From a virus: a stretch of DNA of 64,000 bases. The notes beneath the pieces were generated by a model. It saw only the letters and a program-made list of their open reading frames with translations. It ran no database searches and was not told where the DNA came from. A program made the position numbers and the translations under genes. Each line of letters opens with the position of its first letter. The first letter of the stretch is position 1. Location: the UHGV virus genome UHGV-0037395; one strand, 5' to 3'. This document shows positions 8,858 through 63,997 of this stretch, in pieces.

Positions 8858-9354
8858 AACAATACTCCTGTATTGGAAATGAAATAAGTTTTCTTTAGGA
8901 CTATTCAGAAAGAATAGAACAACTGTTACTGTCAATTTCTCAACAAATTAATTGCAAATACTGAAGGGGGGTGGCAACTTCCCCTTTCACGCTACACTGC
9001 CGCTTCACTATACCGCACAAATCCTTGAGGATGGCCGCTAAGCCAGATTTGCTCACCTAATGCTTCATGTACTAGCTCATACTAGATGTAGTATACCTTA
9101 CGTCATCACTTCTCAGAGTTTTTCACTCTTCCCGTCTCACTTCACAACCACCTCACACTAGGTTGCTTCGAGGCCTTACCAGGGTTCCTACGGGATGTAG
9201 ATCGCTAAGTATTCTATTAACTATTTGTTTAAAAACTAACACGTAACAGTTAAAACAACCCTTAATGGGGCAGCCTAACTGTTCCGTATCGCGGATTGTA
9301 AACAAGAAAAATTAGCAAAATCAATTTTTACTAATGTCTCTCATTTATGGGAAT

Positions 9355-9384
9355 ATTATACTATAAAATAATACTCCCTTGCAA
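9355..9384 (-). promoter_or_regulatory. T5-type promoter (TTGCAA-18-TATAAT) heading a ~480-nt leader
   Basis: Cassette-like flanks; no ORF between it and the ATPase gene start at 8857. Confidence 0.5.
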
Positions 9385-9392
9385 ATGAAATT

Positions 9393-9899
9393 TTACTGGA
9401 TTGATTCCCTACCGTATAATTGACCTCTAAACATCTTGGCCATAGAACATGCAACCTCATAGTTGTCATATGTTCCTTTAACTATCCGTTTACGGTTAAT
9501 AGTAAATACTACTTGCCAGTTCTTACTACCAGAAGGGTAAACATGCATTCCTTTCTTATATTTGATATTTCTTAGATTACCAGATACTGTCTGCTCTCTA
9601 AGATTTTCAATACGATCATCACCTTTTATAGTGTTCACATGATCTACTAAATCAGGTAAGTATCCATGATGCATTAAAAATATTGCTCTATGCCGAAGCA
9701 TAGTCCTATTCCCTAGAGATATACGATAATATCCGTTACCCGTAGAAACACAACATTCTTTCCCTGCATTTCTTCCCGTAGTTCTAAATAACTTACCATC
9801 TTCATATCGGAAGTTATCTAAAAGTTCTTGCTGTGTGAATGACATCCTCACCTCCAATACATATATTATTACATAATCCATCCAAATTGTCAACGACAA
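9393..9899 (-). CDS. HNH homing endonuclease
   Basis: YYRISLGNRTMLRHRAIFLMHHGYLPDLVDHVN...RIENLREQT matches HNH/NUMOD-type free-standing endonucleases. Confidence 0.65.
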   Translation of the reverse strand: MSLTIWMDYVIIYVLEVRMSFTQQELLDNFRYEDGKLFRTTGRNAGKECCVSTGNGYYRISLGNRTMLRHRAIFLMHHGYLPDLVDHVNTIKGDDRIENLREQTVSGNLRNIKYKKGMHVYPSGSKNWQVVFTINRKRIVKGTYDNYEVACSMAKMFRGQLYGRESIQ

Positions 9900-9987
9900 T
9901 TTATTTTGACTATCAATCGACTGGAAAGATTAGGTAATAATCCGAGCACTAATAGCCCGGATTATAAAGTTCATCTAATAAAAATCA

Positions 9988-10377
9988 TTAGTCATTTAAT
10001 CCCGGAACATAGATCCCAACACGGTTTAATTGTTCTTTAGCTTCTTTGAGAATATCTGGAGTGTACTCCCAAATATCATCTTCCACCTGTAAAAGATGGG
10101 GCGAACAACCATCATCAGGCGCACGACATATGGCCAAGCCACGTGGATGGAATATAGAGAAGTTTAGGGCAACAATTAAACCCATAGCGGACAATTCATT
10201 CCAGTCCATCTCCCATTCCCCGGCGTAGCCGGATAGAAAAACACCAATACAGGGATCATCTGTTTGCTGCTCAGGAAAAGTGAAGGAGGCTTGTCTTACC
10301 CCTAACCAACGTTGTAGCAGCTTTTCCGCACGCTTCACCAAACTAGGGTCAATCTGACGCCAATATACTTGTTCCAT
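9988..10377 (-). CDS. Hypothetical protein, paralog A of tandem pair (129 aa)
   Basis: Shares PCIG..W.E.D.MGL..ALN...F.P...and C-terminal (Y/M)(V/I)PGL with the adjacent ORF. Confidence 0.45.
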   Translation of the reverse strand: MEQVYWRQIDPSLVKRAEKLLQRWLGVRQASFTFPEQQTDDPCIGVFLSGYAGEWEMDWNELSAMGLIVALNFSIFHPRGLAICRAPDDGCSPHLLQVEDDIWEYTPDILKEAKEQLNRVGIYVPGLND

Positions 10378-10386
10378 TCTGCCTCC

Positions 10387-10815
10387 TTAAGCAGTTAAAC
10401 CTGGGATCATATACCCGAAACGTCGAAGTTTCTGAATCCCCTCATTTACTTCTTCCGGTGAGTAAGACCAACCATAACGTTCATTAACCTGAAAACCAGG
10501 AGATTCACTAGTTTTATAGTTAACAACAAGGCGATGCTTAGCAGGCATAAACAGCTTATAATTTAACGCAAAAACTAAGCCCATTTCGTCTAACTCTTTC
10601 CAGCCCACAATCTCTTCAAGACCATCCTCTACCTGCACAATTAAACCAATACAGGGCCCCTCATCAATATCATCTTTAAAAGCAAAGGAGATTTCGTTAT
10701 TCTCACACCATATTTTCAAAGAGTTAATAGCCTCATTATACAGGCTAGCTGGGAGAGTACGCCAAAAGTTAACCAAAATTGGGTTAGCTTCTTTAGAGAA
10801 TACATTATTGAACAT
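10387..10815 (-). CDS. Hypothetical protein, paralog B of tandem pair (142 aa)
   Basis: Paralogous to 9988-10377 (same conserved blocks). Confidence 0.45.
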   Translation of the reverse strand: MFNNVFSKEANPILVNFWRTLPASLYNEAINSLKIWCENNEISFAFKDDIDEGPCIGLIVQVEDGLEEIVGWKELDEMGLVFALNYKLFMPAKHRLVVNYKTSESPGFQVNERYGWSYSPEEVNEGIQKLRRFGYMIPGLTA

Positions 10816-51831: not shown

Positions 51832-52364
51832 TGAAAGTTTTCTTTTGGAGTGATCTCCACTTAGGACATGCAAATATTACTAAATTCAGACCAATCTTTT
51901 CTACTATGGAAGAGCATGACGAATTTATTATGGATACTGTTACATCCATGAAAGATAAGCGTACAGTATTCTATATTTTAGGAGATGCATTTGTATCCAG
52001 AAATGGTTTGGAGAAGTTTGAAAAACTCTTTGGCAATGTTAGAACTACGTTGGTTTTGGGGAACCACGACTTAGAACGAGAAGGATTATCTTTCAAAGAC
52101 TTAATAGGAGTTGTAGATAACATACAATCACTAGTTAAGTATAAAAACTTCTGGCTTTCCCATGCTCCAGTACATCCGGGAGAGCTGAGAGGTAAAAAGA
52201 ACTTACATGGGCATACTCACTTTGAGTTAATGGGAGATCCTCGTTATATCAACGTTTGTGTTGAATATGCTAAATCACCAGTACGACTGGAAGACATCAT
52301 GAGTGGTAAGTACACTTCGCATGATAAAACTAGCTGGATGTCAAATGTCGAAGTATATAGCTGA
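51831..52364 (+). CDS. Metallophosphoesterase (second, 177 aa)
   Basis: SDLHLGH, GNHD and HGHTH motifs; ATGA overlap with preceding phosphatase. Confidence 0.6.
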   Translation: MKVFFWSDLHLGHANITKFRPIFSTMEEHDEFIMDTVTSMKDKRTVFYILGDAFVSRNGLEKFEKLFGNVRTTLVLGNHDLEREGLSFKDLIGVVDNIQSLVKYKNFWLSHAPVHPGELRGKKNLHGHTHFELMGDPRYINVCVEYAKSPVRLEDIMSGKYTSHDKTSWMSNVEVYS

Positions 52365-57711: not shown

Positions 57712-58421
57712 TTAAAGAAGCTGAAAAATTAAAACGTCTTATCCAGTTAGCACGTGGAGCTACACAAAAGAGCCTTTCCCAGCTAACTGATGAAGAAAAA
57801 TATGCAGTAATGTTTTTAGGAGATCATTATCCTGCAAAGTGGGATAAAGGAAAGATCAAGTATGATCGGGATGCAAAACAAGTTGTTTGGTCAGGTTCAT
57901 ATGTGGAGGTAAATAAAGCGTTAAAGGCTTTAGATCCTGAAGCAAAAGGTTTCTCTTCCAATGCTATTCATATTCTAATTGATGAAGATCTCCCAAGATT
58001 TAAGGAAGCATCATTTAAAGAAGCATTAGCTAGCGAAGATCTTATTCCTTTTAAACACGGTAAGTATGCACATCTTCCTCCACTAGAAAAAGAGAAACCT
58101 ACTCTAGTTAAAGATGAAGTTTATCGTGGAATTGGCACAATGCTAGCGAGTTTGACTGTAGCTCTCCATAAAGATCTAGAGTTAACGCCCCTAGAAAACG
58201 CTGTGCATTTCATGTGCCATAAGTACGAGGACACATTTAAAGAACTATGTAAATCGCTAGGAATGCCAAGTTACACGATATTAAACTATGCTCCTGAGTA
58301 TACTAGAGCAGCACGCGGAACTATGGATTACGATGATACAGGATCCACTGCTTCCTATTTAGCAACTTATATCTACTTCGCATCTTTAGGTATCAAACTC
58401 AAATCCAAGAGGGAGGAATAA
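57708..58421 (+). CDS. Hypothetical protein (237 aa)
   Basis: Last plus-strand gene before the iteron region. Confidence 0.4.
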   Translation: MIKEAEKLKRLIQLARGATQKSLSQLTDEEKYAVMFLGDHYPAKWDKGKIKYDRDAKQVVWSGSYVEVNKALKALDPEAKGFSSNAIHILIDEDLPRFKEASFKEALASEDLIPFKHGKYAHLPPLEKEKPTLVKDEVYRGIGTMLASLTVALHKDLELTPLENAVHFMCHKYEDTFKELCKSLGMPSYTILNYAPEYTRAARGTMDYDDTGSTASYLATYIYFASLGIKLKSKREE

Positions 58422-58445
58422 AAGTTAGCAAAAAGTTCTTGCATT

Positions 58446-58476
58446 CTCATACCCAAACATGTTATAATAATCTCAT
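58446..58476 (+). promoter_or_regulatory. Sigma70-like promoter (TTGCAT-18-TATAAT) at start of iteron region
   Basis: Hexamers seen; no ORF downstream. Confidence 0.3.
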
Positions 58477-58887
58477 AGATTAACAACTACTCTAGTTGAT
58501 TAACTCTAGGGGCGATGATTATTACACGAATGTCTCGTATAGCTTGCGGCCTAGCAACAGCGGTATGACGGCATGAGTACTCACGTAATTAATCACGCGC
58601 CCCCAGGAGAGACTCTCATGAAATGGGGGTCTCTTTTTCTTTATATTATTTAAATATTTTTAATGGCAATATCTGTGTTCAAGATGATACACCTATTGCC
58701 GCTCATCTGCTAGGATGGCACAACACTTTCCTAGAAACTCCAGAGTTCTCACGAAATACTCACTCTTTCTAGGGCGGTTCTCCTAAGTTTCTAGGAACAT
58801 ATACTAGGCGGTTTAATACAGGGCGGTTATTGGGAGGGCGGTTATTTCTAGAAGACATTTTTTGAAAACACATTTCCAGAAATTACT

Positions 58888-59487
58888 GTCGGATTTGCAC
58901 ACTGACATAAGTTTAAAAACTGGTCGGATTTGCACAATCGCCTAAGTTTTTAGGAACACATAATCTCCTGAAAATGGCAGCATTATTTCGGGCCGAAGGC
59001 CCATGATTGCCTGAGTTTTTAGAGCCACAGAAATTTTCACTTGTCAAGCTATTTTGCTCCATTTAGCTAATAAAATTTTACTTTTTCTGCACTTATCTCA
59101 AATTAACCCAAATCTTCTCAACTCTTCCCCAAAATCCCCGCAAATCAGGTGCTCCGCACCAAACATGCACCCCTCCCGCAGTTCCCCCAAATTTCTCTCA
59201 CTCTCTCAACTTCTCCCCAAACTCATACAATCACACACCCTCTAATCGAAGTCACAAAAATCTTGTCGGATTCGCACAAATAAATCCATGTCGGATTTGC
59301 ACATATTCTAGTTAATTCCACAGGATTGATGCGCAGCATCAGATTGCTGGAGTTTTTAGGAAAATTCATTGTCGGATTTGCACACTATAAAAATTTTTCG
59401 GGTCGGATTTGCACATTACCAAAAATTGTCGGATTCGCACATACACGCCCGCACGTAACCCGTGGGGGCAAATGTCGGATTTGCACA
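58888..59487 (+). repeat. Array of eight direct 15-bp iterons TGTCGGATT(T/C)GCACA
   Basis: Copies at 58888, 58923, 59265, 59290, 59371, 59402, 59428, 59474; same orientation, irregular spacing, no ORF. Confidence 0.8.
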
Positions 59488-59516
59488 AAAGCGCAGGGCA
59501 ATTGCCCTGCTAGCCT

Positions 59517-59705
59517 GAATGCGAATGATAATGAGAATCATTCGCATTTAAAAAGCGGAATGAGAATGATAATGATTCGCATTTAAGAATGGAAGTGAGA
59601 ATTATTCAGGAAGTGAAACGATTCTCATTTAAAAAGTGGAATGATTATTAGTTAGATAGTGAAATGCGAATGATAATGATTCGTATTTAAGAATGGAAGT
59701 GAGAA
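59517..59705. repeat. Cluster of dimer-type palindromes (AATGCGAATGAT-N-ATCATTCGCATT family) and a ~45-bp direct repeat
   Basis: Perfect palindrome 59517-59548; related half-sites at 59557-59585 and 59661-59690; repeated GAATGGAAGTGAGAA. Confidence 0.7.
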
Positions 59706-59710
59706 ACACT

Positions 59711-59823
59711 ACTATTTAAGTTATCCACAGACTTATCAACAGCACGATTTGACTTGACAAAATCCTAGCCATTTTGAGGCGTTATCAACAGACTTATCAA
59801 CAGCTTATCCTACTGTATAAATA
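59711..59823 (+). repeat. Left arm of inverted repeat: DnaA-box cluster (TTATCCACA, TTATCAACA x4) plus CAGCTTATCCTACTGTATAAATATACAG
   Basis: 28-bp core is the exact reverse complement of 63888-63915; contains -10-like TATAAAT reading rightwards. Confidence 0.75.
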
Positions 59824-60026
59824 TACAGTATTCCTATGCAGTGAATAATTCTAATATAGCGTTAAAACGTCCTAGATCGCATTCTAACGCGTTTAATTTT
59901 GGTGGGGATACTAAAACAGGGGCAAAATTGGAGGAGGCTTGAAAATTAGTTAGCTCGCTAACGATCACACAAGGCGACACGTAACACCCTAACCATTAGC
60001 AGGCTAACCATCGCGGGCGCGGTCAA

Positions 60027-60047
60027 ATGAGAATCATTCTCATTTGA
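60027..60047. repeat. Perfect 21-bp palindrome AAATGAGAATCATTCTCATTT (operator-like)
   Basis: Same half-site family as 59.5-kb palindromes; sits at distal end of module operon. Confidence 0.6.
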
Positions 60048-60085
60048 GAATTGGGGGCACTTCCTGATAGTTGCGCCCCGTGATT
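60044..60085. terminator. GC hairpin plus T-run at distal end of minus-strand module (possibly bidirectional)
   Basis: GGGGC-ACTTCCTGATAGTTGC-GCCCC followed by GTGATTATTATT on plus strand. Confidence 0.4.
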
Positions 60086-60086
60086 A

Positions 60087-60281
60087 TTATTCTGGTAGTC
60101 GGTGCGTGATTTTTTCCTCTTCCCCGTAGGAATCCACCAAATGCTGATAATAACCATCGTGATCATAAATCACTTTATCATACTCCCCACGCTCGACCGC
60201 TTGTCGGTTTTCCAGCGTATCGGGCACGTAAAAAACATCAACCATTGTACTGATTTTGGTTACAACAATTTTATTGCTCAT
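60087..60281 (-). CDS. Hypothetical protein (64 aa), distal gene of GC-richer minus-strand module
   Basis: ORF followed on the minus strand by a hairpin terminator and a palindromic operator. Confidence 0.4.
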   Translation of the reverse strand: MSNKIVVTKISTMVDVFYVPDTLENRQAVERGEYDKVIYDHDGYYQHLVDSYGEEEKITHRLPE

Positions 60282-60296
60282 AGTAACGCCCCGTTA

Positions 60297-60521
60297 TTAG
60301 TTGACTATCTCAAAAATAGCGTTCTCAAGTGTCGCCCTTAGAATCCTCTCGCGCCCTACTACGGAATACTTGAGATCTGGTATTTTGTAACGCTCAATTG
60401 TTTTGAGTAGTTGATCTTTTTGGGCTTTATATTTTTGCCCTTCCTGCACTATCGTGTCGCCTTCGGCTTTAACGCAAATCAGTGTAACCATATAACCCCC
60501 TAGTAAATATATTTTTGCCAA
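60297..60521 (-). CDS. Hypothetical protein (74 aa)
   Basis: ORF in module operon. Confidence 0.4.
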   Translation of the reverse strand: MAKIYLLGGYMVTLICVKAEGDTIVQEGQKYKAQKDQLLKTIERYKIPDLKYSVVGRERILRATLENAIFEIVN

Positions 60522-61175: not shown

Positions 61176-61302
61176 TTGACAGCCTCCCGATTAGATAGCC
61201 AGATAAAAGCATAAAAATCCCCAATGATATGGGGTCATATTTAAATAATGTGGCGGTAAAACCGCCAACCATTGCAAGGATAATAACAATAACGCTTTTC
61301 AT
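61162..61302 (-). CDS. Hydrophobic 46-aa peptide (single TM)
   Basis: ATGA start/stop overlap with upstream gene; MKSVIVIILAMVGGFTATLF...; not in ORF track (<60 aa). Confidence 0.35.
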   Translation of the reverse strand: MKSVIVIILAMVGGFTATLFKYDPISLGIFMLLSGYLIGRLSNGYL

Positions 61303-61511
61303 AGGACACCACGAAACGCAGCATAAAAGGTGGCAAAGTGTTTAACCGTTTCAGCTATCACGTTGCCGCGCTTATCGAATTTTTTCTCGGTAACACGAAA
61401 GGCATTTTTGTTACGTGCTACATATTCGATTTTACAATCTTCCCGCTCGAACGTGTTAACGTCCACCAGCTTAAAGCCTTTCGAACGTGCAAGAGAAACG
61501 TTGCGGATCAT
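61299..61511 (-). CDS. Hypothetical basic protein (70 aa)
   Basis: RBS AAAGGAGAA inside the 3' end of the upstream peptide gene. Confidence 0.4.
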   Translation of the reverse strand: MIRNVSLARSKGFKLVDVNTFEREDCKIEYVARNKNAFRVTEKKFDKRGNVIAETVKHFATFYAAFRGVL

Positions 61512-62046: not shown

Positions 62047-62541
62047 TTAAACTACTTGTAAGGATTCAACATTGAAACATCGTTTTAATTCATCATGTAA
62101 AACAGCGTATTCCTCCCATCGGGTATTATCAGGAATATAAACAAGCTGTTTTAATCGATTTGCGTATATTACCGCTTTATTATCAATTATTTCGACGCCA
62201 CCATATTTAATAATTAATTTCATGACGGAATTAATAGGATCGCCGCCATTTACATATGTGCCGGATTTACTTAGCTGATAATGATAAAGGCTTGCATATA
62301 CGTTTTCATTTTCATACCATTCGCCAGTTTCTTCGTCTTCATAGCCATCACTACCAAAACGAGAAGCATTATCAACAGCCATTTCATGAGCGAAAGCGTC
62401 TAGATCCGTACCAGCAGGAACAAAATATTCCTCGGTATTCCCTTCCCCGCAATAGCCAGTATGACAATCGACTAAAATGATCATATCATGTTTAGCCGTG
62501 CTCACTTCTCCTAGCGAGAAGCCGTATTTTTCCTCAGCCAT
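62047..62541 (-). CDS. Hypothetical acidic protein (164 aa)
   Basis: ORF with RBS AGGAGG. Confidence 0.45.
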   Translation of the reverse strand: MAEEKYGFSLGEVSTAKHDMIILVDCHTGYCGEGNTEEYFVPAGTDLDAFAHEMAVDNASRFGSDGYEDEETGEWYENENVYASLYHYQLSKSGTYVNGGDPINSVMKLIIKYGGVEIIDNKAVIYANRLKQLVYIPDNTRWEEYAVLHDELKRCFNVESLQVV

Positions 62542-63599: not shown

Positions 63600-63887
63600 T
63601 TGTCGGCCTCCTCGTTAATCGGTGAGTGAATGATAAAGGTATTTTCTTTCTAGGGGCAAATATTATTTTACTTTTTTATTTTCCTTGCCTAACGCCTAGT
63701 TTTATGCTAACCGCGCAGCGGTGTAATAAAGAGCAAACCACGGCGAAGCCACCAGGGCGCCGCACTGAAGCCACCTGGCCAACGTGTTGGGTCTTTACTT
63801 TAATACTACCCCGCAGCGTTTAGCTCGTTAGAAAGCGATTTAGGCCGCTTAAAATTGATTGCAGTCGTTAACACTGCCTTTCTACCC

Positions 63888-63997
63888 TGTATATTTATAC
63901 AGTAGGATAAGCTGTGGATAAGTCTGTGGATAAGTCCTTATATCGCCGCCTATCGTGTCAAATTATTTTGTGCTGTGATTAATTCTGTGGATAACTT
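63888..63997 (-). repeat. Right arm of inverted repeat: CTGTATATTTATACAGTAGGATAAGCTG followed by tandem consensus DnaA boxes (TTATCCACA x3 on minus strand)
   Basis: Exact inverted copy of the left arm core; promoter-like TATAAAT reading leftwards into the module operon. Confidence 0.75.

Follow-up and report, generated by a model that had tools for sequence, protein, structure and literature searches.

The window analysed here is a stretch of 64,000 nucleotides from the virus genome UHGV-0037395, and the subject of this analysis is a group of palindromic DNA sites between its positions 59518 and 60047. Positions 58400-60300 share 89-93% identity with Tequintavirus (T5-like) phages of Salmonella and Escherichia, and the window phage is, judged by its sequence, T5-like. 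The same region gave no match in the plasmid collection searched. The pre-early genes, on the minus strand of the window, end at 60087 and the early genes, on the plus strand, end at 58421, and a non-coding stretch of 1.67 kb separates these two converging groups. The last open reading frame (ORF) of the pre-early operon (60087-60281, minus strand) codes for 64 amino acids (phrog_6973), and no DNA-binding domain was detected in it. The palindromic sites lie within the non-coding stretch and share it with DnaA boxes, a LexA box, a G+C-rich hairpin and a series of direct repeats. They resemble the operators of Fur, a metal-sensing repressor of the bacterial host.

Palindromic sites and their match to the Fur box

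The sequence-only reading of this region had described a family of palindromic operators sharing the half-site AATG(C/A)GAATGAT. The family is indeed non-random. Allowing at most one mismatch, the motif occurs in 10 copies in the 64-kb window, compared with a mean of 1.19 and a largest count of 5 in shuffled sequences, and all 10 copies are confined to 59518-59683 or 60026-60044. Unit 1 (59518-59548) is a run of AATGNN hexamers. It had been taken for a perfect 32-bp palindrome at 59517-59548, but its perfect arms are only 12 nt long (59518-59529 and 59537-59548) and are separated by a 7-nt spacer. Two overlapping 9-1-9 sites with a 6-bp offset (59524-59542 and 59530-59548) describe the unit better, and a further weak site is present at 59518-59536. 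Unit 2 (59559-59583) consists of the overlapping sites 59559-59577 and 59565-59583 (AATGATAATGATTCGCATT), and unit 3 (59663-59687) of 59663-59681 and 59669-59687. Both units are carried by a direct repeat on the plus strand (59535-59705), which is not about 45 bp long as first described but 67 nt, with copies at 59535-59601 and 59639-59705 that are 84% identical. A start-to-start step of 35 bp separates the repeat units. The truly degenerate copies or lone half-sites lie at 59594-59648 and comprise AGTGAGAAT (59594-59602), AATGAGAAT (59621-59629, minus strand) and AATGATTAT (59640-59648); in relatives, truncated 13-nt boxes (AATGATTCTCATT) are found at this position. The isolated distal palindrome is perfect, as had been proposed, but its extent was underestimated. 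Instead of 21 bp at 60027-60047 it is a 12-1-12 palindrome at 60023-60047, TCAAATGAGAAT-C-ATTCTCATTTGA, and its core at 60026-60044 is the 19-mer AATGAGAATCATTCTCATT. Its position just beyond the last gene of the module stands; it lies 40 bp past the stop of the minus-strand ORF 60087-60281.

The intergenic regions of 12 E. coli K-12 loci with known Fur regulation (fepA-fes, fepD-entS, fepB-entC, fhuA, fecI, cirA, fiu, tonB, exbB, ryhB, fhuE and fhuF) served as the training set for a Fur matrix of width 19, which palindromic expectation-maximisation learned de novo without being given a consensus. The learned matrix is AATGATAATCATTATCATT (16.7 bits), and the best site per promoter scores 12.6-22.8 bits. 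The matrix is quite specific. Across 69 kb of E. coli DNA, matches of at least 12 bits occur solely in the training promoters and at one additional site between fecR and fecA, upstream of fecA, whose promoter is Fur-regulated. In the window, the six top matches are all located in the palindrome region, at 60026 (24.5 bits), 59565 (23.1 bits), 59530 (22.5 bits), 59669 (19.8 bits), 59524 (16.6 bits) and 59559 (15.5 bits), followed by a seventh site at 59663 (13.5 bits); the weak site within unit 1 reaches 6.0 bits. The sites at 59565-59583 and 59669-59687, previously called degenerate copies, are strong by their score. At 16 bits or more there are 5 matches in the 64-kb window against 0.14 expected from Markov simulations.

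The phage sites show 0-3 base differences from the E. coli consensus AATGATAATCATTATCATT and agree with the classical Fur consensus GATAATGATAATCATTATC at 14-16 of 19 positions. As 19-bp inverted repeats they match at the level of the validated sites used for training. Strong and weaker sites are paired at a 6-bp offset (59524/59530, 59559/59565 and 59663/59669), and relatives show the same clustering of overlapping sites in a hexamer register. Natural Fur clusters likewise have their sites in a 6-bp overlapping register (Chen et al. 2007, PMC2189734). Among the Fur boxes of ryhB, fhuA, fecI, exbB and fhuE are the half-sites AATGAGAAT and ATTCTCATT as well as, in the ACGCATT end of the fhuE box, a sequence closely related to ATTCGCATT. 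The phage array and enterobacterial iron-regulated promoters (for example ryhB, fhuA, fecI, fhuF and fepB-entC) share the 19-bp 9-1-9 motif. None of the 12 E. coli promoters equals the array in density and strength; the array has 6 sites of at least 12 bits in 220 bp, the promoters at most 3. Unlike the enterobacterial boxes, the array lies between converging genes of a virulent phage, overlaps no promoter and has no evident regulated gene.

The exact 19-mer AATGAGAATCATTCTCATT occurs at no fewer than 120 loci in bacterial genomes, whereas about 4 would be expected at equal base frequencies. In a Pfam search of 134 ORFs starting within 250 bp of it at 99 loci, we found Plug/TonB-dependent receptor domains (15), ZnuA-type metal-binding proteins (7), FUR (6), FTR1 iron permease (6), Fe-type solute-binding proteins (5) and siderophore-type Peripla_BP_2 (4). 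The 19-mer marks genes of the Fur regulon in bacteria, and these iron-related neighbors suggest that the same sequence behaves there as a Fur box. A BLAST search of E. coli genomes with the whole array gave nothing informative, its only matches being short and marginal, beside a type VI secretion cluster and within a region of mostly hypothetical small ORFs.

Weaker matches to the Fur matrix (12-14 bits) are also present inside pre-early and early ORFs of the window, at 62280-62298, 62358-62376, 61285-61303 and 52075-52093. In three relatives the site at 62358 takes the form AACGAGAAGCATTATCAAT, which scores 18.2 bits. T5 has a 16-bit match in its Repeat Region 2 and a 14-bit match inside dmp.

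Conservation and the T5 injection-stop region

Homologous T5-like segments were collected by a DNA-pattern search, and 12 distinct segments were compared; a search of viral contigs seeded with the protein of a neighboring 237-amino-acid ORF gave only 3 near-identical loci. All 12 segments have 3-6 sites of at least 18 bits, located at fixed offsets from the DnaA-box pair. The conserved offsets are -52, the position of unit 3 in 12 of 12 segments, then -156, and further outward in 35-bp steps. The site at +305, equivalent to window position 60026, is present in 11 of the 12 and absent from T5. The array is retained in an Epseptimavirus, in the Klebsiella phage Boggle and in the Pantoea phage AAS21 at about 72-75% DNA identity, and nine sites of at least 14 bits are found in AAS21. 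Each of the arrays compared at this identity is flanked by copies of the direct repeat D (DRD) of T5, and three of the four also have a LexA box. The ORFs adjoining the region are poorly conserved among T5-like phages (Davison, bioRxiv 10.1101/866236), in contrast to the Fur sites.

A matrix built from 21 unique strong phage sites correlates with the E. coli Fur matrix at r = 0.94, a value that is partly circular because the phage sites were selected with the E. coli matrix. Variation between phage sites is confined to positions 5, 6, 10, 14 and 15 of the Fur motif, which are degenerate. The two halves of a site show 1.81 mismatched pairs, compared with 1.62 ± 0.12 when halves are paired at random, and only 1 of 26 unique sites is a perfect palindrome. 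The halves vary independently, which suggests that selection acts on each half-site, as a dimeric protein would demand, rather than on a hairpin or cruciform. The earlier proposal of operators for a dimeric repressor agrees well with these 9-1-9 inverted half-sites, each conserved on its own and with no compensatory change between them. The motif identity, the clustering, the 6-bp register, the conservation across T5-like genera and the use of the 19-mer at bacterial iron-uptake genes all point the same way, and the palindromes are very probably canonical Fur boxes, operators that host Fur would bind.

Tequintavirus records place the homologous region where the long terminal repeat has its inner end, about 8-11 kb in from the left end. 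The window plus strand corresponds to the T5 minus strand. In T5 (NC_005859) the homologous stretch 9140-10149 is annotated as "injection stop signal (iss)", the major single-strand nick is at 9748/9749 and the end of the terminal repeat is annotated at 10219. The window region has the position of the T5 injection stop (T5 counterpart 9140-10409), being non-coding, at the inner terminal-repeat end and past the last pre-early ORF. This part of T5 is known as "Repeat Region 3", for which palindromes, direct repeats and DnaA boxes have been listed, and the function of the remaining repeats was said to be impossible to guess (Davison, bioRxiv 10.1101/866236). The locus is homologous to the T5 injection stop signal of the earlier literature (Heusterspreute 1987; Wang 2005; Davison 2015, 2020) and has the same order of elements. 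A comparison of T5 NC_005859 9100-10450 with the window shows the DRD repeats, palindrome J with the 7.9% nick, the box array of direct repeats C and E (DRC/DRE), the DnaA boxes and palindrome D in succession in both, with the perfect site at 60026 as an addition of the window phage. In T5 AY587007, palindromes E, G and I and copies 1-4 of direct repeat C coincide with Fur-matrix matches (19.8, 25.2 and 20.9 bits). The 67-nt repeat pair is likely the 66-bp DRE1/DRE2 of the T5 literature, judged by length and position alone. The shear point of first-step transfer, estimated at 9618 (bioRxiv 10.1101/866236), falls inside palindrome I of AY587007, and hence inside a Fur site.

The other named elements of T5 are also recognized in the window. 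Two DnaA-box pairs, GTTATCCACAGACTTATCAACAGC (59720-59743) and GTTATCAACAGACTTATCAACAGC (59781-59804), are on the plus strand between the Fur array and the distal Fur site and correspond to T5 IRD'-spacer-IRC'. Palindrome D of T5 is a LexA (SOS) box. Its window equivalent at 59811-59830, TACTGTATAAATATACAGTA, has 1 mismatch to the 20-bp consensus TACTGTATATATATACAGTA, which is built around CTGT-N8-ACAG, and the window holds two LexA boxes against 0.01 expected. The LexA box is conserved in the Klebsiella and Pantoea phages, in an Epseptimavirus and, in two copies, in the Vibrio phage JSF10. Palindrome J corresponds to the G+C-rich hairpin at 59493-59510 (minus strand), GCAGGGCAATTGCCCTGC followed by GCTTTTGT, which borders the Fur array at the end farther from the pre-early genes. 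The major 7.9% nick of T5 maps beside it, at about window position 59490. This hairpin is the only terminator-like element of the region, with the appearance of an intrinsic terminator that would end transcripts coming out of the pre-early operon. It is unchanged in every Tequintavirus-type segment displayed, while an exact-match search did not find it in the Epseptimavirus, Klebsiella and Pantoea loci. Eight direct copies of GTCGGATT(T/C)GCACA, the direct repeat D of T5, are located at 58888-59487 on the plus strand (0.02 expected). They straddle the end of the terminal repeat at about window position 59031, as placed by homology to T5 and phage MM-1, and may be sites for terminase or another end-processing factor.

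In a wider scan with a degenerate consensus Fur box, at least 120 viral contigs contained a match. Among 117 loci listed, 27 have at least 3 sites of at least 16 bits within 400 bp. Most of these 27 arrays belong to phages that are not T5-like, with 21-52% G+C, and lie in stretches free of ORFs of 80 or more amino acids.

In the T5 literature searched, the repeats and palindromes have no assigned function and DnaA is the sole host factor proposed. Among open-access papers and preprints we found none linking T5 or T5-like phages to Fur or LexA boxes. What appears new here is the assignment, made from the DNA letters, of the main repeats of the T5 region as putative Fur boxes and of palindrome D as a putative LexA box. 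Repeats that have been catalogued since 1987 without a function would gain a named and testable host factor.

Possible functions of the array

The three double sites and their degenerate copies make up an array of about 190 bp (59518-59687), and the isolated perfect site (60026-60044) stands apart from it. In an iron-replete host, Fur-Fe2+ dimers would occupy the overlapping sites from different faces of the helix until they cover the array. DnaA on its four neighboring boxes and LexA on the nearby SOS box could join Fur in a complex of host proteins on the last DNA to enter during first-step transfer. Such a complex might separate the converging pre-early and early units as a barrier or boundary element that depends on iron, and might contribute to the injection-stop behavior. 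We favor a barrier among the functions considered because no convincing promoter overlaps the boxes, the units converge, the hairpin and nick and the DnaA and LexA boxes flank the array, and the end of first-step transfer coincides with it. The barrier, boundary or injection-stop role taken by itself is nevertheless only a tentative suggestion, while the overall reading, a canonical Fur-box array for which such a role is proposed, appears reasonably probable. Three bolder claims are unlikely to hold jointly: that three host regulators share the T5 injection-stop locus as a composite landing pad, with a Fur array, four DnaA boxes and a LexA box; that Fur-Fe2+ on the DRC/DRE array is the host factor still missing from the picture, which halts first-step transfer or controls when it resumes and makes the step iron-dependent; and that Fur-box arrays away from promoters, often beside DnaA boxes, are a widespread and unrecognized host-factor element across phage lineages.

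How T5 halts injection after 8% of the genome has been an open question since the 1960s. Reading the region as Fur and LexA boxes makes it directly testable, for it names dispensable host proteins that can be removed (fur-null hosts), switched (iron chelation) and assayed. The Fur boxes also suggest that T5-like phages read the iron status of the host. Many of these phages enter through iron-regulated receptors and encode iron-dependent enzymes of nucleotide synthesis, and the arrays in unrelated phages hint at a general strategy.

Several observations weigh against this interpretation. A sigma-70 scan gave no convincing promoter over the boxes; the region has 8 promoter-like matches against 5.4 expected, all weak (9/12) and at background frequency. 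The boxes overlap no -35 or -10 element of a repressed promoter, and the classical repressor mode of Fur is for this reason not evident. The T5-like Vibrio phage JSF10, which has A1 and A2, has no Fur array although its DnaA boxes, LexA boxes and DRD-like repeats are kept, so two-step injection cannot depend on the array in all such phages. Nor is it obvious how a protein could hold back incoming DNA while bound to DNA that has already entered the cell. Phages that depend on FhuA or FepA infect best when iron is scarce, and Fur is then mostly off DNA. Similar arrays are found in phages with no known two-step injection, which argues for a more general role. Transcription-driven entry with hairpins as the stop was considered too and dropped, because T5 first-step transfer is reported to be independent of metabolic energy.

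Fur may bind the array in the service of something else. One such function is replication or processing of the genome end, with the boxes as accessory host-factor sites near DnaA boxes and iteron-like DRD repeats, comparable to the accessory sites of replication origins. The array does have four DnaA boxes next to it, as well as the eight DRD repeats lying on both sides of the inferred end of the terminal repeat, and the 22-mer of the DnaA-box pair occurs in unrelated viral contigs, in some of them beside iteron-like tandem repeats of the GGAAC type. In non-T5 viral contigs the density of DnaA boxes near the arrays is about six times that in the rest of the loci (0.46 and 0.08 per kb; L189 and L208 are examples), but this enrichment is driven by a few loci. 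Several arrays are 0.5-2 kb from a large terminase gene. This proximity is weak, as a terminase gene is within 3 kb of the Fur sites in 25 of the 117 loci listed, and it is confounded by how contigs are selected and recognized and by assemblies broken at repeats. We know of no role of Fur at origins or packaging sites. The T5 origins, moreover, were placed near the genome center by electron microscopy (cited in bioRxiv 10.1101/866236). A replication or end-processing function is on balance distinctly unlikely. A related precedent is given by the sites for integration host factor (IHF) in lambda cosB and attP, which are also sites for an abundant host DNA-binding protein in non-coding phage DNA. 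As at these sites, the phage array appears to use a host protein as an architectural or accessory factor; unlike IHF, Fur is a metal-sensing repressor and not a dedicated bending protein, and any part it has in packaging or ejection is hypothetical.

It is improbable that the array is a decoy by which replicating genomes titrate Fur and derepress host iron uptake, which would supply iron to phage enzymes such as ribonucleotide reductases. Multicopy Fur boxes do titrate Fur, which is the basis of the Fur titration assay. The array offers multiple predicted sites of very high score and no promoter, and its place in the terminal repeat gives two copies per genome. The window encodes the ribonucleotide reductases NrdA/B and NrdD, and non-coding Fur-box arrays recur in unrelated phages. 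However, a cell has thousands of Fur molecules, too many for one infecting genome to titrate. T5 also shuts down transcription in the host and breaks down its DNA only minutes after first-step transfer, and after such an early shutoff a late derepression of host genes would bring little.

The sequence-only reading had looked for the repressor among the small module genes of the phage. On that proposal the sites are operators of a dimeric phage protein, A2 or the product of a small adjoining ORF, and their resemblance to Fur boxes is coincidence or mimicry. The inverted-repeat architecture of an operator suits it, T5 A2 is annotated as DNA-binding and is required for second-step transfer, and for the adjoining 64-amino-acid protein the single-sequence AlphaFold model (strand-strand-helix-strand-helix) is of low confidence, with a predicted local distance difference test (pLDDT) score of 60.8. 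Nevertheless, Pfam and PHROGs searches detected no helix-turn-helix, ribbon-helix-helix or Fur domain in T5 A2 or in nine pre-early and flanking ORFs. A tblastn search with E. coli Fur found nothing in the window while recovering Fur genes in bacterial loci as a positive control, and no gene for a cognate repressor emerged from these searches. The motif is a canonical Fur box and the identical sequence marks the Fur regulon in bacteria. The same motif is arrayed in phages of 21-52% G+C that do not have these genes, and T5-like Vibrio phages retain A1 and A2 yet have no array. The lambda operators OR and OL are likewise multiple, closely spaced palindromic dimer sites at which cooperative occupancy is possible, but for the phage array no cognate repressor gene was found and no promoter is controlled, and its sequence matches the consensus of a host regulator. 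A phage-encoded repressor is accordingly highly improbable. Looping or bracketing of the non-coding stretch by the repressor, which the same reading suggested, is unsupported speculation, and T5 itself lacks the distal site.

The idea with the very least probability is that the palindromes act through nucleic-acid structure, as cruciforms or hairpins stalling the passage of DNA or as transcribed RNA hairpins or terminators: the classical literature does treat the injection-stop signal as a palindrome region, a genuine terminator-like hairpin adjoins the array and the region folds strongly as RNA (-50.1 kcal/mol, z = -6.25 against shuffles), but this folding score is a trivial consequence of inverted repeats, the halves change independently with no compensatory changes, the 12-nt arms of unit 1 are not kept in T5, a 1-nt center is too short to make a hairpin loop, the boxes are not followed by a T-run, and an Rfam search of 58300-60400 with E values up to 1 found nothing.

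Related elements and annotation of the region

A second LexA box is located at 63885-63904 in the window (CCCTGTATATTTATACAGTA, 3 mismatches). Each LexA box adjoins a DnaA-box pair; the two are in inverted orientation about 4 kb apart and correspond to T5 Repeat Regions 3 and 2. The core of the DRD repeats, ATTTGCACA, is one base off the DnaA-box consensus TTWTNCACA, and similar repeats, TCGGTTTTGCAC, are found in Vibrio phage JSF10. The exact 22-mer DnaA-box pair TTATCCACAGACTTATCAACAG is also present in unrelated G+C-rich viral contigs (L024, L025, L028, L032, L041, L043, L044, L047 and others). In several of these it directly follows an ORF, beside short tandem GGAAC-type repeats that resemble origin iterons.

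The end of the terminal repeat is annotated inconsistently in T5, at 9749 (AY692264), 10139 (AY587007) and 10219 (NC_005859). The Kenya-K16 record puts it at about window position 59714, past the Fur array but before the DnaA boxes, and phage MM-1 at about window position 59023. Which annotation is correct decides whether the distance from the array to the physical right end of the genome is about 30 bp or about 500 bp. In the records of phage MM-1 (L002) and Pantoea phage AAS21 (L291), a dozen or more tiny coding sequences (CDSs) of 25-50 amino acids are annotated as 'hypothetical protein' across the region homologous to window 58450-60050, and one GenBank record has 14 such annotations under the matched region. 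The conserved binding-site architecture makes these tiny CDSs likely spurious, and they are probably over-predictions.

In the equivalent non-coding region of Proteus phage 2 (L020:6117-6270), a 46-bp repeat is present three times, and every copy contains an element similar to a Fur box (TATGCAAGTGATTATCATT, 17.2 bits). This distant genus seems to have a weaker version of the array. Other viral contigs (L173-L289) have arrays of 3-9 strong boxes, for example L189:2358-2752, L173:5708-5946, L220:5780-5907 and L241:983-1128. Coliphage muut (Justusliebigvirus; L296:2508-2602) has four boxes in an 800-bp non-coding region. In an IMG/VR contig (L231:2141-2780), a LexA box, four DnaA boxes and three Fur boxes with 37-bp spacing follow one another just upstream of dmp and A1, an order that matches T5. 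The A1 homolog there is about 30% identical to T5 A1, and the contig belongs to a very distant T5-like phage.

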